A stretch of DNA of 64,000 bases from Escherichia coli (lineage in GTDB: Bacteria; Pseudomonadota; Gammaproteobacteria; Enterobacterales; Enterobacteriaceae): NCBI RefSeq assembly GCF_001677475.2, contig NZ_CP015229.1. The stretch is one strand, 5' to 3'. The position numbers were made by a program, and so were the translations under genes. The notes below the pieces were generated by a model that made no database searches, was not told the origin of the DNA, and saw only the letters and a list, made by a program, of their open reading frames with translations. Shown here piece after piece: positions 23,950 to 46,380 of this stretch (its first letter is position 1; each line of letters opens with the position of its first letter).

Positions 23950-24107
<158 letters not shown>

Positions 24108-30126: not shown

Positions 30127-32537
30127 TTGCACGTTGGTTCTGGCGCGAATGGCGCTCGCCGTCGCTATTAATTGTCTGGCTGGCGCTAAGCCTGGCGGTG
30201 GCCTGCGTGCTGGCGCTGGGCAATATCAGCGATCGCATGGAGAAGGGCTTAAGCCAGCAAAGCCGGGAGTTTATGGCGGGCGATCGGGCGTTGCGCAGTT
30301 CACGCGAAGTGCCGCAAGCGTGGCTGGAGGAAGCGCAAAAGCGCGGCCTGAAAGTCGGCAAGCAGCTGACTTTCGCCACAATGACCTTTGCAGGCGACAC
30401 ACCGCAGCTGGCGAACGTCAAGGCGGTGGATGATATCTACCCGATGTATGGCGATCTGCAAACTAATCCCCCAGGCCTGAAACCGCAGGCGGGCAGCGTA
30501 TTGCTGGCCCCACGCCTGATGGCACTGCTTAACCTGAAAACGGGCGACACTATTGACGTGGGCGATGCCACCTTGCGGATTGCCGGAGAAGTGATTCAGG
30601 AGCCGGATTCCGGTTTTAATCCCTTCCAGATGGCTCCGCGTCTGATGATGAATCTGGCGGATGTCGATAAAACCGGAGCCGTGCAGCCGGGAAGTCGGGT
30701 CACCTGGCGCTATAAATTCGGCGGCAGCGAGAACCAGCTCGACGGCTATGAGAAATGGCTGTTACCTCAGCTTAAACCCGAACAACGCTGGTACGGTCTG
30801 GAACAGGACGAAGGCGCGCTGGGGCGATCGATGGAACGCTCGCAGCAGTTCCTGCTGCTTTCGGCGCTTCTGACCTTGCTGCTGGCAGTGGCAGCGGTGG
30901 CTGTGGCGATGAATCATTACTGTCGCAGTCGCTACGATCTGGTGGCGATCCTCAAAACGCTGGGGGCAGGGCGAGCGCAACTGCGTAAGCTAATCGTCGG
31001 TCAGTGGTTGATGGTGCTGACGCTTTCAGCCGTTACCGGTGGGGCGATAGGTCTGTTGTTCGAAAACGTGTTGATGGTGCTGCTCAAGCCCGTTCTGCCT
31101 GCTGCACTACCGCCAGCCAGCCTCTGGCCGTGGCTGTGGGCGCTCGGCACCATGACGGTCATCTCGCTGCTGGTGGGGCTACGACCGTACCGCTTGTTGC
31201 TGGCAACGCAGCCTTTACGCGTATTACGTAATGATGTGGTAGCGAACGTCTGGCCGCTGAAGTTTTATCTGCCGATTGTCAGTGTGGTGGTTGTGCTGCT
31301 GCTCGCCGGATTAATGGGTGGCAGTATGCTGCTCTGGGCGGTGCTGGCGGGCGCGGTAGTGCTGGCTTTGCTGTGCGGTGTGCTGGGCTGGATGCTGCTT
31401 AATGTATTACGCAGCATGACGCTAAAATCGCTACCTCTGCGTCTGGCAGTCAGCCGCCTGTTACGTCAGCCGTGGTCAACGTTAAGCCAGCTTTCGGCAT
31501 TTTCGCTCTCCTTTATGCTGCTGGCACTGCTGCTGGTGTTGCGTGGCGATCTGCTCGACCGCTGGCAACAGCAGCTACCGCCAGAAAGCCCGAACTACTT
31601 TTTAATCAACATCGCAACAGAACAGGTTACACCGCTAAAAGCGTTCCTTGCGGAACATCAGATAGTCCCGGAATCGTTTTATCCGGTAGTGCGGGCGCGG
31701 CTGACGGCGATTAACGGCAAGCCGACAGAAGGCAATGAAGATGAGGCGCTCAACCGCGAACTCAACCTCACCTGGCAAAATACGCGGCCCGATCATAACC
31801 CGATTGTCGCCGGTAACTGGCCGCCAAAAGCTGATGAAGTGTCGATGGAAGAGGGGCTGGCGAAACGCTTAAACGTTACCCTCGGCGATACCGTGACTTT
31901 TATGGGCGATACCCAGGAGTTCCGCGCTAAAGTGACCAGCCTGCGCAAAGTGGACTGGGAAAGTCTGCGGCCTAATTTCTATTTTATTTTCCCGGAAGGG
32001 GCATTAGACGGGCAACCGCAGAGCTGGCTTACCAGTTTCCGCTGGGAGAATGGCAACGGCATGTTGACGCAACTCAACCGCCAGTTCCCGACCATTAGCC
32101 TGTTAGACATTGGCGCGATTTTAAAACAGGTCGGTCAGGTGCTGGAGCAGGTAAGTCGGGCGCTGGAAGTGATGGTGGTGCTGGTCACCGCCTGCGGTAT
32201 GTTGCTGTTGCTGGCGCAGGTGCAGGTGGGAATGCGTCAGCGCCATCAGGAGCTGGTGGTGTGGCGCACTCTCGGTGCGGGCAAAAAACTGCTGCGCACC
32301 ACGTTGTGGTGTGAGTTCGCCATGCTCGGGTTTGTTTCTGGCCTGGTGGCCGCAATTGGTGCGGAAACGGCGCTGGCAGTGTTGCAGGCGAAAGTGTTTG
32401 ATTTCCCGTGGGAGCCAGACTGGCGATTGTGGATTGTTCTGCCGTGCAGCGGTGCGCTGCTGCTGTCGCTTTGCGGCGGATGGCTGGGCGCGCGACTGGT
32501 TAAGGGTAAGGCGCTGTTCAGGCAGTTTGCGGGATGA
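30123..32537 (+). CDS. ybbP: FtsX-like ABC transporter permease YbbP
   Basis: 804 aa; two FtsX-type TM bundles separated by large periplasmic domains; 4-bp overlap with ybbA. Confidence 0.9.
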   Translation: MIARWFWREWRSPSLLIVWLALSLAVACVLALGNISDRMEKGLSQQSREFMAGDRALRSSREVPQAWLEEAQKRGLKVGKQLTFATMTFAGDTPQLANVKAVDDIYPMYGDLQTNPPGLKPQAGSVLLAPRLMALLNLKTGDTIDVGDATLRIAGEVIQEPDSGFNPFQMAPRLMMNLADVDKTGAVQPGSRVTWRYKFGGSENQLDGYEKWLLPQLKPEQRWYGLEQDEGALGRSMERSQQFLLLSALLTLLLAVAAVAVAMNHYCRSRYDLVAILKTLGAGRAQLRKLIVGQWLMVLTLSAVTGGAIGLLFENVLMVLLKPVLPAALPPASLWPWLWALGTMTVISLLVGLRPYRLLLATQPLRVLRNDVVANVWPLKFYLPIVSVVVVLLLAGLMGGSMLLWAVLAGAVVLALLCGVLGWMLLNVLRSMTLKSLPLRLAVSRLLRQPWSTLSQLSAFSLSFMLLALLLVLRGDLLDRWQQQLPPESPNYFLINIATEQVTPLKAFLAEHQIVPESFYPVVRARLTAINGKPTEGNEDEALNRELNLTWQNTRPDHNPIVAGNWPPKADEVSMEEGLAKRLNVTLGDTVTFMGDTQEFRAKVTSLRKVDWESLRPNFYFIFPEGALDGQPQSWLTSFRWENGNGMLTQLNRQFPTISLLDIGAILKQVGQVLEQVSRALEVMVVLVTACGMLLLLAQVQVGMRQRHQELVVWRTLGAGKKLLRTTLWCEFAMLGFVSGLVAAIGAETALAVLQAKVFDFPWEPDWRLWIVLPCSGALLLSLCGGWLGARLVKGKALFRQFAG

Positions 32538-32554
32538 TGACAGGCGTTAGATTG

Positions 32555-32660
<106 letters not shown>

Positions 32661-32685
32661 GTGCATTTTGGCAATAAATATGAAA

Positions 32686-32741
32686 CCAACTGTCATGTCG
32701 GTTTTTTTAAAGGCCGAAGGTGGTAAACCTTCGGCCTTAGC
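32686..32741. terminator. Terminator module of repeat copy 1: stem CCAAC/GTCGG plus T-tract and adjacent GGCCGAAGG...CCTTCGGCC hairpin, immediately 3' of the minus-strand peptide ORF
   Basis: Palindromes read from sequence; the first hairpin is a one-mismatch copy of the terminator at 33162-33190. Confidence 0.5.
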
Positions 32742-32754
32742 TACGTTTCCTCAG

Positions 32755-32838
32755 TTATTCAATAAACTGACGGATCAGTTCCAGCAGCGCGATTAGCGCC
32801 TTAAGAACGATGAGAACTTTATCGAGAAAAGTTTTCAT
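32755..32838 (-). CDS. Candidate type I toxin: 27-aa hydrophobic single-helix peptide MKTFLDKVLIVLKALIALLELIRQFIE (DinQ/TisB-like)
   Basis: Hand-translated from the minus strand; not in the supplied ORF track. SD AAGGGAG 6 nt upstream lies inside the perfect palindrome CTCCCTTAAGGGAG (32845-32858); an in-frame upstream ATG at 32908-32910 would give 51 aa. Resembles E. coli DinQ (ALIALLELIR core) as I recall that sequence. Confidence 0.6.
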   Translation of the reverse strand: MKTFLDKVLIVLKALIALLELIRQFIE

Positions 32839-33063
32839 CCGTTGCTCCCTTAAGGGAGAAAGACAATCACAGCTTACCCTTACGTTGCCTGTAACTATGA
32901 TTTTCTTCATGTGCTAGATGAGGACTGCCTCTCTCCAAATTAGAGCACCAGAATCAGCACCACCTGTATCCTGACCAGGACTTAAAAGTACTTTTCCGCA
33001 CTGCGGTAATCCCTTGAGGCAGTATCACTACTAGCGTCGGGATTGTATCGCCAGCATAGCTGT

Positions 33064-33092
33064 TTGAATATGTAGGCATCCTGACTTATAAT
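33064..33092 (+). promoter_or_regulatory. Sigma70-type promoter TTGAAT-17 bp-TATAAT driving the candidate antisense sRNA
   Basis: -35 TTGAAT at 33064-33069, -10 TATAAT at 33087-33092, predicted start near 33099. Confidence 0.55.
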
Positions 33093-33098
33093 TCACTT

Positions 33099-33190
33099 GC
33101 TAGATGAGGACTGTTTCATTTCTGCCCGGAACCACCAAGTCTTGGGCGGAAAAAAAATAAAAAAACCGACTGTCATGTCGGTTTTTTTAT
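33099..33190 (+). ncRNA. Candidate ~90-nt antitoxin sRNA (AgrB-like), trans-complementary to the toxin mRNA leader
   Basis: Bounded by the promoter above and the intrinsic terminator AAAAAAACCGACTGTCATGTCGGTTTTTTT (33162-33190). Its 5' end GCTAGATGAGGACTG (33099-33113) is an exact direct repeat of 32913-32927, so the RNA is complementary to the minus-strand toxin leader. Confidence 0.5.
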
Positions 33191-33251
33191 ATCTGTATTC
33201 TGGTGCAACCATTCTGTTCTCACGACAATCGCCGTTTCAGAATACCGCCCA

Positions 33252-34361
<1,110 letters not shown>

Positions 34362-34414: not shown

Positions 34415-35341
34415 TTAACTGCGTGGGTTGCCGAAAATTTCTAAAAATCCGCTGATTTCCGGCCTGCGCTGGGTAAACAAGGTCACAATATCTTCTACCG
34501 CTTTGCCGCTGCCAAATTTGCGCCATGCCAGACTCAATGGCGAAGGAGGGCGCATCGTTGGGATTACCCGGCTGACCAGTTGTTGATTATCGATCATTGA
34601 CTGGCAAAGTGATTTTGGCAAAAAACCAATGCCAACGCCCGCCAGATGGGCGGCGATTTTCGTTTCCATATCGGGAACAATAATCTCTTTTTGCCCCGGC
34701 AATCGCCAGGCAACGCGTTTGGTTAGTGTGCGGGCGCTGTCTTCAATATTGACCGCCGGAAAGCGCCGCAACTGCGCTTCTGTTAGCGGCTCTTCAATGT
34801 TCGCCAGCGGATGATCCGCCGCCATGACAAAGCGCCATTGCACCGATCCTAAGGGATCAAGACTAAAGGTATTTGCCAGCGCCTCGGTTCCCGTGACGCC
34901 GATAGCCAGTGAAAAACCTTCGTACAATAGCGAGTCCCAGACGCCCATATAGATTTGTCGGGAGATGTGAAACTGGGTAAAGGGGTAACGTTCATTCAGC
35001 CACGCCAGCAGTTGGGCGACGGCCTGGGGGTTGTAGAGCAGGTTGTTGATGACAATATTCACCTGGCGTTCCACGCCATCATTCACCTGTTGCAGCTCGC
35101 TGGGCATACTTTCCAGCCAGCTCAGCCAGTCTCTGGCCTGAGAAAGTAGATGCTCGCCAGCCGCTGTCAACGTCACGCTGCGAGTCGTGCGGAAAAACAG
35201 CGCCACTCCGGTATTCTCTTCCAGAAGTTTAATGCGATAACTGATCGTCGCCGTGGTTTTACATAATCGTTCTGCCGCTTTTGAAAAACTTCCTGTTTCA
35301 GCAACCGCAATGAAAGTCCGCAAGGTTTCTGGATCGAACAT
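34415..35341 (-). CDS. allS: LysR-family activator of allD, AllS
   Basis: 308 aa; N-terminal LysR HTH; divergent from allA as in K-12. Confidence 0.9.
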
Positions 35342-35438
35342 CTTCAGGTATCCCCTTTTAAATCAGCAAGTTGCGTGATTTTCTTATCCTCTGATTTATC
35401 AGTATTTTTACATGATAACCCTGTTCAATTTGTGGACT

Positions 35439-35455
35439 AAATCTAGTTTTGGAAA
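35439..35455. promoter_or_regulatory. AllR operator palindrome TTGGAAAAATATTCCAA (allS-allA intergenic)
   Basis: Perfect palindrome read from sequence; matches the known AllR site TTGGAAAA-N-TTTTCCAA. Confidence 0.7.
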
Positions 35456-35570
35456 AATATTCCAACTTTTGTGTTGATGTTGTTCTCTTAAGGTTTTAGA
35501 TTGCCTGTTATTGAAACCAAGCTGACCGGTCGGCGCTGGTTGAACGGAATTATGTTGCAAGGATAAAAAG

Positions 35571-36053
35571 ATGAAACTTCAGGTATTACCGTTAAGTCAG
35601 GAAGCCTTTAGTGCTTATGGCGATGTAATCGAAACGCAGCAACGGGATTTTTTCCATATTAACAATGGCCTGGTAGAGCGTTACCACGATTTGGCGCTGG
35701 TTGAGATTCTTGAGCAAGACCGTACGCTTATCAGCATTAACCGCGCGCAACCGGCGAATCTGCCGCTGACCATTCACGAACTCGAACGTCATCCGCTGGG
35801 CACTCAGGCCTTTATCCCGATGAAAGGTGAAGTGTTTGTGGTGGTCGTGGCGTTAGGTGACGACAAACCAGACCTGTCAACGCTGCGGGCGTTTATCACC
35901 AACGGTGAACAGGGGGTGAATTACCATCGTAACGTCTGGCATCACCCACTTTTCGCCTGGCAGCGCGTCACCGATTTTCTGACCATCGATCGCGGCGGCA
36001 GTGACAACTGTGATGTTGAAAGTATTCCTGAACAGGAACTCTGTTTTGCGTGA
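35571..36053 (+). CDS. allA: Ureidoglycolate lyase
   Basis: 160 aa; synteny and sequence match. Confidence 0.9.
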
Positions 36054-36130
36054 CGCCTGCAACCGACTTGCATAAGATAAACTAATTGTTCATTGTTTAT
36101 GCTCACTTGTAGGTCGGAGTTAACGTAGGT

Positions 36131-36946
36131 ATGACGGAAGTTAGACGGCGCGGCAGGCCAGGACAGGCGGAGCCTGTGGCACAGAAGGGCGCACAGGCGT
36201 TAGAGCGGGGAATTGCGATTCTGCAATATCTGGAAAAAAGTGGGGGAAGTTCGTCGGTTAGCGATATTTCTCTCAATCTGGATTTGCCGCTCTCCACGAC
36301 CTTTCGCTTGCTGAAGGTTTTACAGGCAGCGGATTTTGTCTATCAGGACAGTCAGTTAGGTTGGTGGCATATAGGATTAGGTGTTTTTAACGTCGGTGCG
36401 GCGTACATCCATAACCGCGATGTCCTCTCCGTCGCCGGGCCGTTTATGCGCCGCCTGATGTTACTTTCCGGCGAAACGGTCAATGTCGCGATTCGTAACG
36501 GCAATGAAGCAGTATTAATTGGTCAGTTAGAGTGTAAATCGATGGTCAGGATGTGTGCGCCGCTGGGCAGTCGTCTGCCGCTGCATGCTTCCGGTGCGGG
36601 CAAGGCGCTGCTTTATCCGCTGGCGGAAGAGGAGTTGATGAGCATCATTCTGCAAACCGGTTTGCAGCAGTTTACGCCAACGACGCTTGTGGATATGCCC
36701 ACCTTGCTGAAGGACCTGGAACAAGCGCGTGAACTGGGCTATACCGTAGATAAAGAAGAGCATGTTGTAGGCCTGAATTGCATAGCTTCAGCAATTTACG
36801 ATGATGTAGGTAGTGTTGTTGCCGCTATCTCCATCTCCGGGCCTTCATCAAGACTGACAGAAGATCGTTTTGTCAGTCAGGGTGAGCTGGTCAGAGACAC
36901 CGCCCGCGATATCAGCACGGCGTTGGGACTGAAAGCACATCCATAG
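36131..36946 (+). CDS. allR: IclR-family repressor of the allantoin regulon
   Basis: 271 aa; IclR-type N-terminal HTH and C-terminal effector domain. Confidence 0.9.
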
Positions 36947-36955
36947 TGTCTGTCG

Positions 36956-36987
36956 CATCCTGCTCTGCGGAGCGGGTTTTTTTGACA
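36956..36987 (+). terminator. Intrinsic terminator after allR
   Basis: Hairpin CCTGCTC-TGCG-GAGCGGG followed by T7. Confidence 0.55.
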
Positions 36988-36998
36988 AAATTTGAAAG

Positions 36999-37015
36999 TT
37001 GGAAAATTTTTCCAA
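36999..37015. promoter_or_regulatory. AllR operator palindrome TTGGAAAATTTTTCCAA upstream of gcl
   Basis: Perfect palindrome 21 nt upstream of the gcl ATG. Confidence 0.7.
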
Positions 37016-37035
37016 TTAATAGAGGTAGGAATAAA

Positions 37036-38817
37036 ATGGCAAAAATGAGAGCCGTTGACGCGGCAATGTATGTGCTGGAGAAAGAAGGTATCACCACCGC
37101 CTTCGGCGTTCCGGGAGCTGCAATCAATCCGTTCTACTCAGCGATGCGTAAGCACGGCGGTATTCGTCACATTCTGGCGCGTCATGTGGAAGGTGCTTCG
37201 CACATGGCGGAAGGTTATACCCGCGCAACGGCAGGGAATATCGGCGTATGTCTGGGAACCTCGGGACCAGCAGGCACTGACATGATCACCGCGCTCTATT
37301 CCGCTTCTGCTGATTCCATTCCTATTCTGTGCATTACCGGCCAGGCTCCGCGCGCCCGTCTGCATAAAGAAGATTTCCAGGCCGTTGATATTGAAGCAAT
37401 TGCTAAACCGGTCAGCAAAATGGCGGTTACAGTACGTGAAGCGGCGCTGGTGCCTCGTGTGCTGCAACAGGCATTTCACCTGATGCGTTCTGGTCGTCCG
37501 GGTCCGGTACTGGTGGATTTACCGTTCGACGTACAGGTTGCGGAAATCGAGTTTGATCCTGACATGTACGAACCGCTGCCGGTCTACAAACCTGCTGCCA
37601 GCCGTATGCAGATCGAAAAAGCTGTAGAAATGTTAATCCAGGCCGAACGTCCGGTGATTGTTGCCGGGGGCGGGGTAATCAATGCTGACGCAGCTGCACT
37701 GTTACAACAGTTTGCTGAACTGACCAGCGTTCCGGTGATCCCAACGCTGATGGGCTGGGGCTGTATCCCGGACGATCATGAACTGATGGCCGGGATGGTG
37801 GGTCTGCAAACCGCGCATCGTTACGGTAACGCAACGTTGCTGGCGTCCGACATGGTGTTTGGTATCGGTAACCGTTTTGCGAACCGTCATACCGGTTCGG
37901 TAGAGAAATACACCGAAGGGCGCAAAATCGTTCATATCGATATTGAGCCGACGCAAATTGGCCGCGTGCTGTGTCCGGATCTCGGCATTGTTTCTGATGC
38001 TAAAGCGGCGCTGACGCTGCTGGTTGAAGTGGCGCAGGAGATGCAAAAAGCGGGTCGTCTGCCGTGTCGTAAAGAATGGGTCGCCGACTGCCAGCAGCGC
38101 AAACGCACTTTGCTGCGCAAAACCCACTTCGACAATGTGCCGGTGAAACCGCAGCGCGTGTATGAAGAGATGAACAAAGCCTTTGGTCGCGATGTTTGTT
38201 ATGTCACCACCATTGGTCTGTCACAAATCGCTGCGGCACAAATGCTGCATGTCTTTAAAGACCGCCACTGGATCAACTGTGGGCAGGCAGGCCCGCTGGG
38301 CTGGACCATTCCGGCGGCGCTGGGCGTGTGTGCCGCTGATCCAGAGCGCAATGTGGTGGCGATTTCCGGTGACTTCGACTTCCAGTTCCTGATTGAAGAA
38401 TTAGCTGTTGGCGCACAGTTCAACATTCCGTACATCCATGTACTGGTCAATAACGCCTATCTGGGTCTGATTCGCCAGTCGCAGCGCGCGTTTGATATGG
38501 ATTACTGCGTACAGCTCGCGTTCGAAAATATTAACTCCAGCGAAGTGAACGGTTACGGCGTCGACCACGTAAAAGTAGCGGAAGGTTTAGGTTGTAAAGC
38601 GATTCGCGTTTTCAAACCGGAAGATATAGCACCAGCCTTTGAACAGGCGAAAGCCTTAATGGCGCAATATCGGGTACCGGTAGTCGTGGAAGTTATTCTC
38701 GAGCGTGTGACCAATATTTCGATGGGCAGCGAACTGGATAATGTAATGGAATTTGAAGATATCGCCGATAACGCAGTGGATGCACCGACTGAAACCTGCT
38801 TCATGCACTATGAATAG
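37036..38817 (+). CDS. gcl: Glyoxylate carboligase (tartronate-semialdehyde synthase), ThDP-dependent
   Basis: 593 aa from [13 protein letters not shown] with SD GAGGTAGGA upstream; the track ORF has a 30-codon 5' extension that I reject. Confidence 0.92.
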
Positions 38818-38829
38818 GGGAGATAAATA

Positions 38830-39606
38830 ATGTTACGTTTCTCTGCTAATTTATCAATGTTATTTGGTGAATATGATTTTCTCGCCCGTTTTGAGAAAGC
38901 TGCGCAGTGTGGTTTTCGCGGCGTTGAATTTATGTTTCCTTATGACTACGACATTGAAGAATTAAAACAGGTGCTGGCGAGTAATAAACTCGAGCATACG
39001 CTGCATAATTTACCTGCGGGTGACTGGGCGGCGGGCGAGCGGGGTATTGCCTGTATTCCTGGCCGTGAAGAAGAGTTTCGTGATGGCGTAGCAGCGGCGA
39101 TTCGTTATGCTCGTGCGCTGGGTAATAAAAAAATCAACTGTCTGGTCGGTAAAACGCCGGCGGGTTTCAGCAGTGAACTGATTCACGCAACGCTTGTGGA
39201 AAACCTGCGTTATGCCGCGAATATGTTGATGAAAGAAGATATTTTATTACTGATTGAACCTATCAACCATTTCGATATTCCTGGTTTCCATCTCACCGGA
39301 ACTCAGCAGGCGCTGAAACTGATTGATGATGTAGGCTGCTGCAATTTGAAAATTCAGTATGACATTTATCATATGCAGCGGATGGAAGGTGAATTAACCA
39401 ACACCATGATCCAATGGGTCGATAAAATTGGTCACCTGCAAATCGCCGATAATCCACATCGCGGCGAACCGGGAACCGGAGAAATTAATTACGATTATCT
39501 CTTTAAGGTAATTGAACATTCTGACTACAACGGTTGGGTTGGCTGTGAATATAAACCCAGAACCACCACGGAAGCCGGTTTAGGCTGGATGAAACCGTAC
39601 CGTTAA
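38830..39606 (+). CDS. hyi: Hydroxypyruvate isomerase
   Basis: 258 aa; TIM-barrel sugar-isomerase-like. Confidence 0.9.
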   Translation: MLRFSANLSMLFGEYDFLARFEKAAQCGFRGVEFMFPYDYDIEELKQVLASNKLEHTLHNLPAGDWAAGERGIACIPGREEEFRDGVAAAIRYARALGNKKINCLVGKTPAGFSSELIHATLVENLRYAANMLMKEDILLLIEPINHFDIPGFHLTGTQQALKLIDDVGCCNLKIQYDIYHMQRMEGELTNTMIQWVDKIGHLQIADNPHRGEPGTGEINYDYLFKVIEHSDYNGWVGCEYKPRTTTEAGLGWMKPYR

Positions 39607-39705
39607 AACGTAACGCTGTTCAGACAATGCTTTTTTAGGCCGCTACGTCGGCAGGGGATCGTGTTGTCTGAATTCAGGAAAAGCGACATTTAAAAGAGGC
39701 TAAAT

Positions 39706-40584
39706 ATGAAACTGGGATTTATTGGCTTAGGCATTATGGGTACTCCGATGGCCATTAATCTGGCGCGCGCCGGTCATCAACTGCATGTCACAACTATTGG
39801 TTCGGTTGCTGATGAATTACTGTCACTCGGTGCCGTCAGTGTTGAAACTGCGCGCCAGGTAACAGAAGCGTCAGACATCATTTTTATTATGGTGCCGGAT
39901 ACGCCACAGGTTGAAGAAGTTCTGTTTGGTGAAAATGGTTGTACCAAAGCCTCGCTGAAGGGCAAAACCATTGTTGATATGAGCTCCATTTCCCCGATTG
40001 AAACTAAACGTTTCGCTCGTCAGGTGAATGAACTAGGTGGCGATTATCTCGATGCGCCAGTCTCCGGCGGTGAAATCGGCGCGCGTGAAGGGACGTTGTC
40101 GATTATGGTTGGCGGTGACGAAGCGGTATTTGAACGTGTTAAACCGCTGTTTGAATTGCTCGGTAAAAATATCACCCTCGTGGGCGGTAACGGCGACGGT
40201 CAAACCTGCAAAGTGGCAAATCAGATTATCGTGGCGCTCAATATTGAAGCGGTTTCTGAAGCATTGTTGTTTGCTTCAAAAGCCGGTGCGGACCCGGTAC
40301 GTGTGCGCCAGGCGCTGATGGGCGGCTTTGCTTCCTCACGTATTCTGGAAGTTCACGGTGAGCGCATGATTAAACGCACCTTTAATCCAGGTTTCAAAAT
40401 TGCGCTGCACCAGAAAGATCTCAACCTGGCACTGCAAAGTGCGAAAGCACTGGCGCTGAACCTGCCAAACACTGCGACCTGCCAGGAGTTATTTAATACC
40501 TGTGCGGCAAACGGTGGCAGCCAGTTGGATCACTCTGCGTTAGTGCAGGCGCTGGAATTAATGGCTAACCATAAACTGGCCTGA
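39706..40584 (+). CDS. glxR: Tartronate semialdehyde reductase (2-hydroxy-3-oxopropionate reductase)
   Basis: 292 aa; N-terminal NAD-binding GxGxxG (GLGIMGTPMA). Confidence 0.9.
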   Translation: MKLGFIGLGIMGTPMAINLARAGHQLHVTTIGSVADELLSLGAVSVETARQVTEASDIIFIMVPDTPQVEEVLFGENGCTKASLKGKTIVDMSSISPIETKRFARQVNELGGDYLDAPVSGGEIGAREGTLSIMVGGDEAVFERVKPLFELLGKNITLVGGNGDGQTCKVANQIIVALNIEAVSEALLFASKAGADPVRVRQALMGGFASSRILEVHGERMIKRTFNPGFKIALHQKDLNLALQSAKALALNLPNTATCQELFNTCAANGGSQLDHSALVQALELMANHKLA

Positions 40585-40752
40585 TACCCGCAATAAAAAT
40601 GGCCGATATCAGAAAATGAATCGGCCAGCAATATTAAAAAAGAAAGCAGCCAAAGATGTTGCTTCAGTATTAAAAATAATATTTTTATTTTATTTGTTCC
40701 TCATAGCTAGATTAAAACAGCGTTATTCGATACGTGAAATTAAGAGGGATTT

Positions 40753-42207
40753 ATGGAACATCAGAGAAAACTATTCCAGCAACGCGGCTATAGCGAAGAT
40801 CTACTGCCGAAAACGCAAAGTCAGCGGACCTGGAAAACATTTAACTATTTTACCTTATGGATGGGTTCGGTTCATAACGTTCCCAATTATGTGATGGTTG
40901 GCGGCTTTTTTATCCTCGGCTTGTCTACCTTTAGTATTATGCTGGCAATTATCCTCAGTGCCTTTTTCATTGCCGCGGTAATGGTATTAAACGGTGCTGC
41001 GGGCAGTAAATACGGCGTACCGTTTGCCATGATCCTGCGTGCTTCTTACGGCGTACGTGGCGCACTGTTTCCCGGATTATTAAGAGGCGGTATTGCTGCC
41101 ATTATGTGGTTTGGCCTGCAATGTTACGCGGGGTCACTGGCCTGCTTGATTCTGATTGGCAAAATCTGGCCGGGATTTTTGACTCTCGGTGGTGATTTCA
41201 CTCTGTTAGGCCTTTCTCTACCGGGCTTAATTACTTTCTTACTCTTCTGGCTGGTCAACGTTGGTATTGGTTTTGGCGGTGGCAAAGTTTTAAATAAATT
41301 CACTGCCATTCTTAACCCGTGCATCTATATCGTTTTCGGCGGTATGGCGATTTGGGCGATTTCGCTGGTCGGGCTCGGTCCAATCTTTGACTACATTCCG
41401 AGCGGTATTCAGAAAGCAGAAAACAGTGGCTTCCTGTTCCTGGTGGTGATTAACGCGGTAGTTGCGGTCTGGGCGGCACCGGCGGTGAGCGCATCCGACT
41501 TTACGCAAAACGCCCACTCGTTTCGTGAGCAAGCGCTGGGGCAAACGCTGGGTTTAGTTGTGGCCTATATTCTGTTTGCGGTCGCCGGGGTATGTATTAT
41601 TGCCGGAGCCAGTATTCACTACGGCGCTGACACCTGGAACGTGCTGGATATTGTTCAGCGTTGGGACAGCCTGTTTGCCTCGTTCTTTGCGGTACTGGTT
41701 ATTCTGATGACGACTATCTCCACTAACGCCACCGGTAATATTATTCCGGCCGGTTATCAGATTGCCGCTATTGCACCGACGAAACTGACCTATAAAAACG
41801 GCGTACTGATTGCCAGTATTATCAGCCTGCTGATCTGCCCGTGGAAATTAATGGAAAATCAGGACAGTATTTATCTGTTCCTCGATATTATCGGCGGAAT
41901 GCTGGGTCCGGTAATTGGTGTAATGATGGCTCATTATTTTGTGGTGATGCGTGGGCAAATTAACCTTGATGAACTATACACCGCACCTGGCGATTATAAA
42001 TATTACGATAACGGTTTTAACCTCACCGCGTTTTCAGTAACTCTGGTGGCCGTTATTTTATCTCTTGGCGGTAAGTTTATTCACTTTATGGAACCGTTAT
42101 CGCGTGTTTCATGGTTTGTCGGCGTCATCGTCGCCTTTGCGGCCTACGCCTTATTAAAGAAACGTACAACAGCAGAAAAAACAGGAGAGCAAAAAACCAT
42201 AGGTTAA
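40753..42207 (+). CDS. ybbW: NCS1-family allantoin permease
   Basis: 484 aa; 12-TM transporter; synteny. Confidence 0.85.
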   Translation: MEHQRKLFQQRGYSEDLLPKTQSQRTWKTFNYFTLWMGSVHNVPNYVMVGGFFILGLSTFSIMLAIILSAFFIAAVMVLNGAAGSKYGVPFAMILRASYGVRGALFPGLLRGGIAAIMWFGLQCYAGSLACLILIGKIWPGFLTLGGDFTLLGLSLPGLITFLLFWLVNVGIGFGGGKVLNKFTAILNPCIYIVFGGMAIWAISLVGLGPIFDYIPSGIQKAENSGFLFLVVINAVVAVWAAPAVSASDFTQNAHSFREQALGQTLGLVVAYILFAVAGVCIIAGASIHYGADTWNVLDIVQRWDSLFASFFAVLVILMTTISTNATGNIIPAGYQIAAIAPTKLTYKNGVLIASIISLLICPWKLMENQDSIYLFLDIIGGMLGPVIGVMMAHYFVVMRGQINLDELYTAPGDYKYYDNGFNLTAFSVTLVAVILSLGGKFIHFMEPLSRVSWFVGVIVAFAAYALLKKRTTAEKTGEQKTIG

Positions 42208-42266
42208 TTAATCCCGATATTGAACATTGAGTTAAAAACCAATCTGTATTTTACAAGGAGTTTGTT

Positions 42267-43628
42267 ATGTCTTTTGATTTAATCATTAAAAACGGCACCG
42301 TTATTTTAGAAAACGAAGCTCGCGTTGTAGATATCGCCGTTAAAGGCGGAAAAATTGCTGCTATCGGTCAGGATCTGGGTGATGCAAAAGAAGTTATGGA
42401 TGCGTCTGGTCTGGTGGTTTCGCCGGGCATGGTTGATGCGCACACCCATATTTCTGAACCGGGTCGTAGCCACTGGGAAGGTTATGAAACCGGTACTCGC
42501 GCAGCAGCAAAAGGTGGTATCACCACCATGATCGAAATGCCGCTCAACCAACTGCCTGCAACGGTTGACCGCGCTTCAATTGAACTGAAGTTCGATGCCG
42601 CTAAAGGCAAGCTGACTATCGATGCGGCACAACTCGGTGGCCTGGTGTCTTACAACATTGATCGTCTGCATGAGTTGGATGAAGTGGGCGTTGTCGGCTT
42701 CAAATGCTTCGTTGCGACCTGTGGCGATCGCGGTATCGACAACGACTTCCGTGATGTAAATGACTGGCAGTTCTTCAAAGGCGCGCAGAAGCTGGGCGAA
42801 CTGGGGCAGCCGGTGCTGGTGCACTGCGAAAACGCACTGATCTGTGACGCACTGGGCGAAGAAGCGAAACGTGAAGGTCGCGTAACTGCCCATGACTATG
42901 TGGCTTCGCGTCCGGTATTTACCGAAGTGGAAGCGATTCGCCGCGTACTGTACCTGGCGAAAGTTGCCGGTTGCCGTCTGCACATTTGCCATATCAGCAG
43001 CCCGGAAGGTGTTGAAGAAGTGACTCGTGCACGTCAGGAAGGTCAGGACGTTACCTGTGAATCCTGCCCGCATTACTTTGTACTGGATACCGATCAGTTC
43101 GAAGAAATCGGTACTCTGGCGAAGTGTTCACCGCCGATCCGCGATCTGGAAAACCAGAAAGGCATGTGGGAAAAACTGTTTAACGGTGAAATCGACTGCC
43201 TGGTTTCCGACCACTCACCATGCCCTCCGGAAATGAAAGCCGGCAACATCATGGAAGCATGGGGCGGTATTGCCGGTCTGCAAAACTGTATGGACGTGAT
43301 GTTCGATGAAGCGGTACAGAAACGCGGAATGTCTCTGCCAATGTTCGGCAAATTAATGGCGACTAACGCAGCAGATATTTTCGGTCTGCAGCAAAAAGGC
43401 CGTATCGCCCCAGGAAAAGATGCCGACTTCGTCTTCATTCAGCCGAATAGCAGCTATGTTCTTACCAATGACGATCTGGAATATCGCCACAAAGTCAGCC
43501 CGTATGTTGGCCGTACCATTGGCGCGCGTATCACGAAAACCATCTTACGTGGTGATGTGATTTACGACATTGAACAGGGCTTCCCTGTTGCGCCGAAAGG
43601 TCAATTTATCCTTAAACATCAGCAGTAA
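42267..43628 (+). CDS. allB: Allantoinase (cyclic amidohydrolase)
   Basis: 453 aa; metal-binding DAHTH motif near the N-terminus. Confidence 0.92.
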
Positions 43629-43678
43629 TCTGGCCCCTGCAATGCCCGTCCTTGCGGCGGGCATTCTCCGGTTAAGGT

Positions 43679-44986
43679 GTGTTTATGTTCAATTTTGCAG
43701 TCAGCCGCGAAAGCCTGTTATCAGGATTTCAGTGGTTTTTCTTTATTTTTTGCAACACGGTTGTGGTTCCTCCTACGCTACTTTCTGCTTTTCAGTTGCC
43801 GCAAAGTAGCCTGCTTACGCTCACGCAATATGCTTTTCTTGCTACCGCACTGGCCTGCTTCGCTCAGGTGTTTTGCGGTCATCGTCGCGCTATTATGGAA
43901 GGGCCAGGTGGCCTGTGGTGGGGAACCATCCTTACTATCACCCTTGGCGAAGCATCGCGCGGGACACCGATCAACGATATCGCTACCAGTCTGGCGGTGG
44001 GGATTGCACTCTCCGGCGTGCTGACGATGTTGATTGGTTTTAGCGGATTAGGCCATCGCCTGGCACGGTTATTTACGCCGTCGGTGATGGTCCTGTTTAT
44101 GTTGATGCTGGGCGCGCAGCTGACCACTATCTTTTTCAAAGGTATGCTCGGGCTGCCGTTTGGCATAGCCGACCCAAATTTTAAAATTCAGTTACCGCCG
44201 TTCGCGCTCTCGGTGGCGGTGATGTGCCTGGTACTGGGGATGATTATCTTCCTGCCGCAACGTTTTGCCCGTTATGGCCTGCTGGTCGGCACCATAACCG
44301 GCTGGTTGTTGTGGTACTTTTGCTTTCCTGCTTCGCACTCGCTCTCCGGTGAGTTGCACTGGCAGTGGTTCCCGCTCGGCAGTGGCGGTGCGTTGTCGCC
44401 GGGAATTATTCTGACGGCGGTGATTACAGGTCTGGTAAATATCAGCAATACCTACGGTGCGATTCGGGGCACGGATGTTTTTTATCCGCAGCAGGGCGCG
44501 GGGAATACGCGTTATCGTCGTAGCTTTGTGGCGACCGGATTTATGACGCTGATAACCGTACCGCTGGCGGTAATTCCATTTTCACCGTTTGTTTCATCCA
44601 TTGGTTTATTAACCCAGACTGGCGATTACACGCGACGTTCGTTTATTTATGGCAGCGTTATTTGCCTGCTGGTTGCGCTGGTTCCGGCACTCACGCGACT
44701 ATTTTGCAGTATCCCTTTACCAGTGAGTAGCGCGGTCATGCTGGTTTCTTATCTGCCTTTACTCTTTTCCGCGCTGGTGTTTAGCCAGCAAATAACCTTT
44801 ACCGCTCGCAATATTTATCGACTCGCATTGCCGTTATTTGTCGGCATATTTTTAATGGCATTACCGCCTGTGTATCTGCAAGACCTTCCATTAACGCTTC
44901 GTCCTCTGCTCAGTAACGGCTTACTGGTCGGAATTTTACTGGCTGTTCTTATGGATAATCTTATTCCGTGGGAACGCATCGAATAA
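43679..44986 (+). CDS. ybbY: Putative purine/xanthine permease (NCS2 family) YbbY
   Basis: 435 aa polytopic membrane protein; an alternative ATG lies 6 nt downstream. Confidence 0.8.
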   Translation: MFMFNFAVSRESLLSGFQWFFFIFCNTVVVPPTLLSAFQLPQSSLLTLTQYAFLATALACFAQVFCGHRRAIMEGPGGLWWGTILTITLGEASRGTPINDIATSLAVGIALSGVLTMLIGFSGLGHRLARLFTPSVMVLFMLMLGAQLTTIFFKGMLGLPFGIADPNFKIQLPPFALSVAVMCLVLGMIIFLPQRFARYGLLVGTITGWLLWYFCFPASHSLSGELHWQWFPLGSGGALSPGIILTAVITGLVNISNTYGAIRGTDVFYPQQGAGNTRYRRSFVATGFMTLITVPLAVIPFSPFVSSIGLLTQTGDYTRRSFIYGSVICLLVALVPALTRLFCSIPLPVSSAVMLVSYLPLLFSALVFSQQITFTARNIYRLALPLFVGIFLMALPPVYLQDLPLTLRPLLSNGLLVGILLAVLMDNLIPWERIE

Positions 44987-45007
44987 TTTGTTGAAAAAGG
45001 ATTGATA

Positions 45008-46153
45008 ATGAAGATTGTCATTGCGCCAGACTCTTTTAAAGAGAGCTTAAGTGCAGAAAAATGTTGTCAGGCAATTAAAGCCGGGTTTTCGACCCTCTTT
45101 CCCGATGCGCACTATATCTGTTTGCCGATAGCGGATGGCGGCGAAGGGACGGTGGATGCGATGGTCGCCGCGACGGGCGGCAACATCGTGAAGCTTGAAG
45201 TCTGCGGGCCGATGGGCGAAAAAGTGAATGCTTTTTATGGCCTTACCGGCGACGGGAAAACAGCGGTGATTGAGATGGCGGCAGCAAGTGGCCTGATGCT
45301 GGTCGCGCCTGAAAAGCGTAATCCGTTGCTGGCCTCCAGTTTTGGTACGGGGGAGTTAATTCGTCATGCGCTGGATAACGGCATTCGCCATATTATTCTC
45401 GGCATTGGCGGTAGTGCGACGGTCGACGGCGGTATGGGCATGGCGCAGGCGCTTGGTGTGCGTTTCCTTGATGCCGACGGTCAGGTGCTGGTGGCTAACG
45501 GCGGCAATTTAGCGCGCGTGGCAAGCATTGAGATGGATGAATGCGATCCGCGTCTGGCGAACTGCCATATTGAAGTAGCATGTGACGTTGATAACCCGCT
45601 GGTAGGGGCACGCGGCGCGGCGGCGGTGTTTGGCCCGCAAAAAGGGGCAACGCCGGAGATGGTCGAAGAACTGGAACAGGGGCTGCAAAATTACGCCCGT
45701 GTTTTACAACAGCAAACTGAAATGAATGTCTGCCAGATGGCGGGCGGCGGCGCGGCGGGCGGTATGGGTATTGCGGCGGCGGTATTCCTCAATGCGGATA
45801 TTAAACCGGGCATTGAGATTGTGTTGAATGCGGTCAATCTTGCGCAGGCGGTGCAGGGCGCAGCACTGGTGATCACCGGGGAAGGGCGCATCGACTCGCA
45901 AACGGCAGGCGGTAAAGCTCCGCTGGGCGTTGCGTCGGTGGCGAAGCAGTTTAATGTACCGGTGATTGGGATTGCTGGCGTATTGGGTGATGGCGTGGAA
46001 GTGGTGCACCAGTACGGCATTGATGCGGTATTCAGCATTTTGCCACGTCTGGCACCTTTAACCGAAGTGCTCGCCAGCGGTGAAACCAATCTCTTCAACA
46101 GTGCGCGAAATATTGCCTGCGCCATTAAAATAGGTCAGGGAATTAAAAACTGA
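45008..46153 (+). CDS. glxK: Glycerate kinase II
   Basis: 381 aa from [16 protein letters not shown]; the track ORF begins 2 codons upstream. Confidence 0.9.
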
Positions 46154-46199: not shown

Positions 46200-46310
46200 T
46201 GCTCATGCCGGATGCGGCATGAGTACTATATCCTTCCTGAAAATCGCGCAAATTCTATATATTGTAGAGATCATGTAGGCCTGATAAGCGAAGCGCATCA
46301 GGCAATGTTA
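46200..46310. repeat. REP-like palindromic elements between glxK and allE
   Basis: Palindrome GCTCATGCCGGATGCGGCATGAG and REP unit GTAGGCCTGATAAGCGAAGCGCATCAGGCA. Confidence 0.6.
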
Positions 46311-46311
46311 C

Positions 46312-46345
46312 AAAAAAAGCCACGGTATAAACCGTGGCAAAATCC
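46312..46345 (-). terminator. Intrinsic terminator downstream of allE
   Basis: Minus-strand hairpin GCCACGG-TTTATA-CCGTGGC followed by T7. Confidence 0.6.
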
Positions 46346-46380
46346 AACATAGCTAAAAATAATCAGGCGAGTGGTATGAC

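Follow-up and report, generated by a model that had tools for sequence, protein, structure and literature searches.

Two sites with the features of AllR operators on either side of allR in the allantoin/glyoxylate cluster of an Escherichia coli chromosome

The Escherichia coli contig NZ_CP015229.1 (assembly GCF_001677475.2) carries two short palindromic sequences close to the gene of the repressor AllR, one in the allS-allA intergenic region and the other upstream of gcl, and the question that they raise is whether these are the operators through which AllR controls the neighbouring allantoin and glyoxylate genes. The original prediction described them as two perfect AllR operator palindromes, intact and at the expected positions, and took them to indicate a functional allantoin regulon. 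By the window we mean throughout the whole stretch of DNA that was analysed (64,000 nucleotides, 64 kb). We are highly confident that both 17-bp sites are AllR operators, with AllR encoded between them, and that the DNA is ordinary E. coli chromosome. A 1.8-kb stretch of this locus is matched in 5404 of 5426 complete E. coli genomes, with identities of up to 99.4%, and the RefSeq annotation of the matching genomes names the genes as allS, allA, allR, and gcl. The genes and sites concerned are the following.

34415–35341, minus strand: allS, LysR-type activator (99.7% to K-12 AllS; Pfam HTH_1 and LysR_substrate), predicted to be repressed via operator 1.
35449–35465: AllR operator 1, common to the divergent allS and allA promoters (exact match; equals K-12).
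35571–36053, plus strand: allA, ureidoglycolate lyase (open reading frame; Pfam Ureidogly_lyase), predicted to be repressed via operator 1.
36131–36946, plus strand: allR, IclR-family repressor (100% to K-12 AllR; Pfam HTH_IclR and IclR_C).
36999–37015: AllR operator 2, belonging to the gcl operon (exact match; aligned to K-12).
37036–46153, plus strand: the gcl operon, gcl-hyi-glxR-allW-allB-ybbY-glxK, predicted to be repressed via operator 2.

The C-terminal domain of AllR matches the PDB entry 1tf1 (E = 2e-110). The gcl operon, as defined in PMC12535856, has all of its seven genes full length and 96.5–99.7% identical to K-12, and along the entire cluster, from allS through allK, 17 of 17 genes have their full length, uninterrupted by stop codons. 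The start of gcl is the ATG at 37036, as in the K-12 annotation; a 623-aa open reading frame beginning with the GTG at 36946 was discarded as an artefact of the ORF finder. Operators alone are insufficient to establish a functional regulon as had been originally proposed, but the identity of AllR and the 17 intact genes agree with it, and what can be read from the DNA is consistent with a functional AllR regulon.

Site 1 (TTGGAAAAATATTCCAA) and site 2 (TTGGAAAATTTTTCCAA) each have a single exact match in the whole 64-kb window. The former almost exactly halves the 229 bp between allS and allA, and the latter, 20 nt 5' of the gcl ATG, follows the allR terminator and precedes the gcl Shine-Dalgarno sequence. 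The description as two perfect palindromes is right for site 2, which is a perfect 8+1+8 palindrome, and has to be corrected for site 1, in which seven of the eight symmetric pairs are formed, positions 7 and 11 being A/A within the arms TTGGAA and TTCCAA. There are exactly two occurrences of the frame TTGGAA-N5-TTCCAA in the 64 kb, against 0.0026 expected from base composition, and it was absent from 100 out of 100 dinucleotide-preserving shuffles of the window. When a weight matrix trained on 43 orthologous AllR sites was scanned over the full window, the two sites scored 32.6 and 31.0 bits, while the next-best position reached 6.0 bits. Tetrameric regulators of the IclR family often use tandem sites ca. 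20 bp apart; the search for further or tandem AllR sites, including the allD-allF control region, gave nothing above 6 bits in the window. Both sites are genuine and without duplicates, and chance falls far short of explaining them.

The next point is how these sites compare with those already published for AllR. The motif given in Table 1 of PMC8222616, where it is credited to Rintoul 2002 and to that study itself, is KTTGGAAWAWTWTTCCAAC. Site 1 has no mismatches to this 19-nt motif (35448–35466), and site 2 has one, at a flanking position, whichever strand is used. For K-12, Supplementary Table 1 of the same paper (PMC8222616) places AllR sites at -124 for allA (TTTGGAAAAATaTTCCAAc), at -124 for allS (gTTGGAAtATTTTTCCAAA, which is the other strand of the allA site), and at -39 for gcl (gTTGGAAAAATTTTCCAAt). 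In the window, the distance from the first base of the corresponding 19-mer to the ATG is 123 nt for allA and 38 nt for gcl, and these are the same positions as the published ones, given an off-by-one convention that is consistent in that table. The sites are thus where the original prediction expected them, at 35449–35465 in the middle of allS-allA and at 36999–37015 before gcl, in agreement with the K-12 table. In addition, a 37-nt “AllR recognition site” (AAATCTAGTTTTGGAAAAATATTCCAACTTTTGTATT) is quoted from Rintoul 2002 in PMC13300388, the only paper in which a full-text literature search matched the operator strings. Its counterpart in the window is one further feature.

35439–35475: 37-nt AllR recognition stretch, centred on the site 1 17-mer, with one mismatch to the sequence in PMC13300388.

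The mismatch is a G for A at 35473, outside the core, and the first base of this stretch, 35439, is also the one from which the original prediction started. In so far as these sources quote the earlier work, the motif, the K-12 positions, and the 37-nt sequence all coincide with our sites, so that the published AllR sites are found here and not elsewhere.

The resemblance to the K-12 operators covers the gene context, the distances to the start codons, the motif, and the repressor protein. The site 1 17-mer and the 8-bp arms of the gcl site are identical to K-12, whereas the window differs at 37007 (T vs. A), at 37017 (a SNP), and at 35473 (a SNP in the flank of site 1). In K-12 coordinates, which are those of the window plus 496,880, the two sites correspond to 532,329–532,345 and 533,879–533,895. 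The original description holds in other respects; what had to be amended was the perfect symmetry of site 1 and, in site 2, the centre base, T here and A in K-12. The sites predicted for Klebsiella pneumoniae NTUH-K2044 and Salmonella (PMC8222616, Supplementary Table 1) have the same three targets, i.e., the allS homolog, allA, and gcl, at -37 to -39 for gcl and -120 to -123 for allA, but use other central 5-mers, e.g., AATTA and ACTTT, as do the 21 loci considered below. As summarized from Rintoul 2002 and Walker 2006 in PMC12535856 and PMC11323563, AllR has its binding targets in the DNA between allS and allA and at the gcl promoter, with glyoxylate as inducer and allantoin as co-repressor, and loss of AllR derepresses allS, allA, and gcl. 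The binding, the response to glyoxylate, and the derepression in allR mutants, as these summaries give them, belong to K-12, with its centre-A gcl site. The basis for recognizing AllR operators in the window is the presence of the sites, their uniqueness, the match in motif and position, the conservation across genera, the identical repressor, and the intact targets.

To follow the sites through the Enterobacterales, species-representative genomes were searched with AllR, which gave 22 enterobacterial loci (AllR identity down to 66%) from the genera Escherichia, Citrobacter, Klebsiella, Raoultella, Superficieibacter, Buttiauxella, Izhakiella, Atlantibacter, and Providencia; conservation was counted over the loci covering each position (21 per site). 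Both sites appear at the same places in 21 loci, with 0–1 mismatches per 12 arm positions. Site 1 is kept in 21 of 21, with all 12 arm bases exact in 18 of them, and site 2 likewise in 21 of 21, with exact arms in 20. In each intergenic alignment no block is better conserved than the operator, and the surrounding DNA diverges. The mean majority fraction is 0.99–1.00 in the arms (0.996 for the gcl site) vs. 0.58–0.68 elsewhere in the intergenic regions; for site 1 the contrast is between 0.99 in the arms and 0.58 in the remaining allS-allA intergenic region. The central 5 bp do vary (AAATA, AATTA, AATTT, AAATT, TATTT, AGTTT, and others), being always 95–100% A/T. Arms that are fixed around a centre free to change within A/T would be the pattern expected of a dimer that reads two half-sites across a deformable spacer. 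A separate observation concerns one of the database records (L011, CACSKA010000001.1), which is titled “Chryseobacterium sp. 18061” and bears an enterobacterial allS-allA-allR-gcl locus with an AllR 86% identical to that of E. coli. This locus is nearly equal to that of Citrobacter sp. 18056 (L023), and a wrong label or a contaminated assembly is the probable explanation.

There are other ways in which such sites might be explained. One would be that they are mainly targets of the paralog IclR, with AllR playing a secondary role. The IclR box (TGGAAATNATTTCCA, Table 1 of PMC8222616) has the same TGGAA-N5-TTCCA frame, with the arms and spacing of both sites, and a count by hand over the inner 15 nt finds agreement at 12 of the 14 specified positions for site 2 and at 11 of 14 for site 1. 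Furthermore, AllR and IclR are close paralogs (1td5/2o99 at E ~1e-44), both responsive to glyoxylate, and the box of aceBAK and iclR shares with the AllR sites an A/T-rich centre and repression by overlap with the promoter. However, the sites stay with allR in 21 of 21 orthologous loci, the outer T/A of TTGGAA...TTCCAA, which is specific to AllR in the published motif, is nearly invariant, there are no iclR or aceBAK genes nearby, and the summaries in PMC12535856 and PMC11323563 name AllR as the protein that binds these promoters and whose loss derepresses them. The AllR sites differ from the IclR box in having this extra outer pair, in being without its AT-N-AT centre, and in adjoining allR; with 2–3 of 14 specified positions different (hand count), and placed in an allantoin cluster and not at an aceB or iclR promoter, they are not members of the IclR box. 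We find it very improbable that IclR is their main ligand.

The 17-mers could also be seen primarily as core promoter elements, their halves TGGAAAAAT and TGGAATATT being like an extended -10 and conserved for RNA polymerase. Indeed, -10 candidates exist within both operators (AAAAAT at 35453–35458, after a TG, and AATTTT or AAAATT within 37003–37010), and a conserved TGTGG (35431–35435) is found ca. 17 bp upstream of site 1. Yet a promoter needs no dyad symmetry, and here the two arms are equally conserved with invariant symmetric G/C pairs, whereas the centre, where the -10 would fall, is the most variable part. The two roles are in any case compatible, as overlap of promoter and operator is the expected mechanism of repression, and a purely promoter function has in our opinion as little probability as the IclR alternative. 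Finally, the sites could be A/T-rich palindromes without function that arose by chance. The general abundance of A/T-rich intergenic sequence is all that speaks for this, against two exact matches where 0.0026 would be expected, a next-best site 25 bits lower, the retention of the sites in at least nine genera while their flanks diverge, and the match with the published sites, which together leave chance with a practically negligible probability. The reading of both sites as AllR operators is the one that we retain.

Where the operator stands with respect to the gcl promoter depends on two features immediately downstream of allR.

36959–36983, plus strand: allR intrinsic terminator, stem-loop (36959–36976) and T-run, from a terminator scan.
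36982–37010, plus strand: predicted gcl promoter, with -35 TTGACA (36982–36987), a 17-bp spacer, and -10 AATTTT (37005–37010) inside the operator.

The stem and T-run of the terminator are conserved across genera, and the T-run extends into the predicted gcl -35 hexamer, at whose position a TTGnnn hexamer is also conserved in other genera. The predicted promoter is the best sigma-70 candidate in a custom weight-matrix scan and would start transcription at ca. 37017 (range 37015–37018). Its -10 is weak, with 3/6 consensus positions, and it was absent from the output of the built-in consensus promoter scan; a candidate that the built-in scan did propose, at 37009–37037, was rejected as the gcl promoter because its -10 overlaps the start codon. 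A literature search found no open descriptions of the allS, allA, and gcl start sites. There is, nevertheless, a Pgcl-lux reporter repressed by AllR that was cloned from a fragment equal to 36948–37028 of the window (primers in PMC13300388), and the promoter must therefore lie in the ca. 50 bp that separate the terminator from the ribosome-binding site. Any promoter there would have its spacer and -10 inside the operator, which makes the exclusion of RNA polymerase likely. It is in this way that AllR likely represses gcl, a step that we infer together with the exact overlap with the -10 and -35.

The same DNA holds another element. In K-12, the sRNA AllZ (b4831) is annotated over the 3' end of allR through the terminator (ca. 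36749–36983 of the window), and it has been detected by RIL-seq and northern blot (PMC8175672). The 3' end of AllZ, the allR terminator, and the next promoter, as predicted, share ca. 30 bp, with the T-run supplying a perfect TTGACA -35.

For the allS-allA control region, one promoter was predicted on the allA side.

35474–35502, plus strand: predicted allA promoter, with -35 TTGATG (35474–35479) and -10 TAGATT (35497–35502).

This is the top sigma-70 candidate of the intergenic region and both of its hexamers are in blocks conserved across genera. Two arrangements fit the sequence about equally well. In one of them (model A), the operator would sit between back-to-back promoters, the predicted allA promoter and an allS promoter with its -10 near 35417–35412, all in conserved blocks, and the 37-nt protected stretch would reach as far as the -35 region on each side; allA transcription would then start near 35509. 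In the other (model B), extended -10-like elements (TGGAAAAAT and TGGAATATT) would be inside operator 1 itself, with starts near 35465 and 35449. The built-in promoter scan gave no candidate near site 1. The intergenic region has two more conserved blocks, TGATTTAT..GTATTTTT.CAT across genera at 35392–35416, and the near-invariant TGTGG (35431–35435) to the left of operator 1. Both may be allS promoter elements or the site of another regulator; allS is also regulated by nitrogen, via a factor not yet named (PMC12535856).

The difference from K-12 inside the gcl operator deserves separate consideration. The dyad centre at 37007 is T in the window and A in K-12 (TTGGAAAAATTTTCCAA), and as a consequence the gcl site of the window is the exact reverse complement of the K-12 site, with the 8-bp arms unchanged. 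The second SNP, at 37017, is linked to it and located 10 nt 3' of the centre. In complete E. coli genomes, the 66-mer comprising the gcl operator has 1991 exact copies with the allele of the window and 1984 with that of K-12, and these near-equal numbers indicate that the flip of the centre and the SNP at 37017 are a common two-allele polymorphism (ca. 50:50). The centre base is also position 3 of the predicted gcl -10, which reads AATTTT here and AAATTT in K-12. As the AllR half-sites are untouched and this position of the -10 is changed, the alleles could differ in promoter strength. That they set different basal or induced strengths of the gcl-operon promoter in different lineages, with repression unchanged, is a possibility that we consider rather unlikely.

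The regulation that would result from these elements can be put as follows. Each half-site, TTGGAA or TTCCAA, would be contacted by one AllR subunit through its helix-turn-helix, on either side of the A/T-rich 5-bp centre. At gcl, AllR bound over the spacer and -10 of the only plausible promoter would exclude RNA polymerase from the whole gcl-hyi-glxR-allW-allB-ybbY-glxK operon, while in the allS-allA region a single site in the middle would repress both divergent genes. Upon induction, glyoxylate would free AllR from the DNA, allantoin being the reported co-repressor. The derepressed AllS would then activate allDCE and allFGHK, both of them without an AllR site. In the literature, an allR deletion left allF'-'lacZ unchanged and these operons depend on AllS (PMC12535856); the lack of an AllR-like site at allD-allF agrees with this insensitivity.

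Some observations were made in other parts of the window. Collinearity with K-12 stops just upstream of selU/mnmH, where K-12 has an Rhs element and ylbG, and the window has instead a short ybbP-mnmH spacer with a dinQ-like type I toxin gene, annotated in matching genomes. The same spacer region (30500–33250) carries an AgrB-like antisense RNA (Rfam RF02891, 50.3 bits) at 33100–33190 on the plus strand. For the 2.8-kb stretch at 30500–33260, 1293 complete E. coli genomes have a match at a single place that covers at least 80% of it. SelU/MnmH (33252–34346) and Hyi (38830–39606) are 95.6 and 96.5% identical to K-12, respectively, with their neighbours at 98–100%, and this divergence hints at a mosaic ancestry of the region, to judge from protein identities. 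Two other RNAs matched at the Rfam gathering score: STnc480, located between glxK and allE at 46308–46374 (plus strand), and naRNA4, at 23981–24058 (minus strand), a nucleoid-associated RNA derived from REP sequences.

The two AllR operators were already known and, in this sense, the finding is correct but ordinary, with little significance beyond annotation. The allantoin/glyoxylate cluster of this strain is complete and apparently open to regulation, its AllR control sites being those of the textbooks. Across genera, the footprint shows neatly how an operator is conserved, with arms that are invariant and a centre that may vary as long as it is A/T, and the polymorphism at the centre base of the gcl site is a small detail that may be relevant to natural variation in gcl expression.
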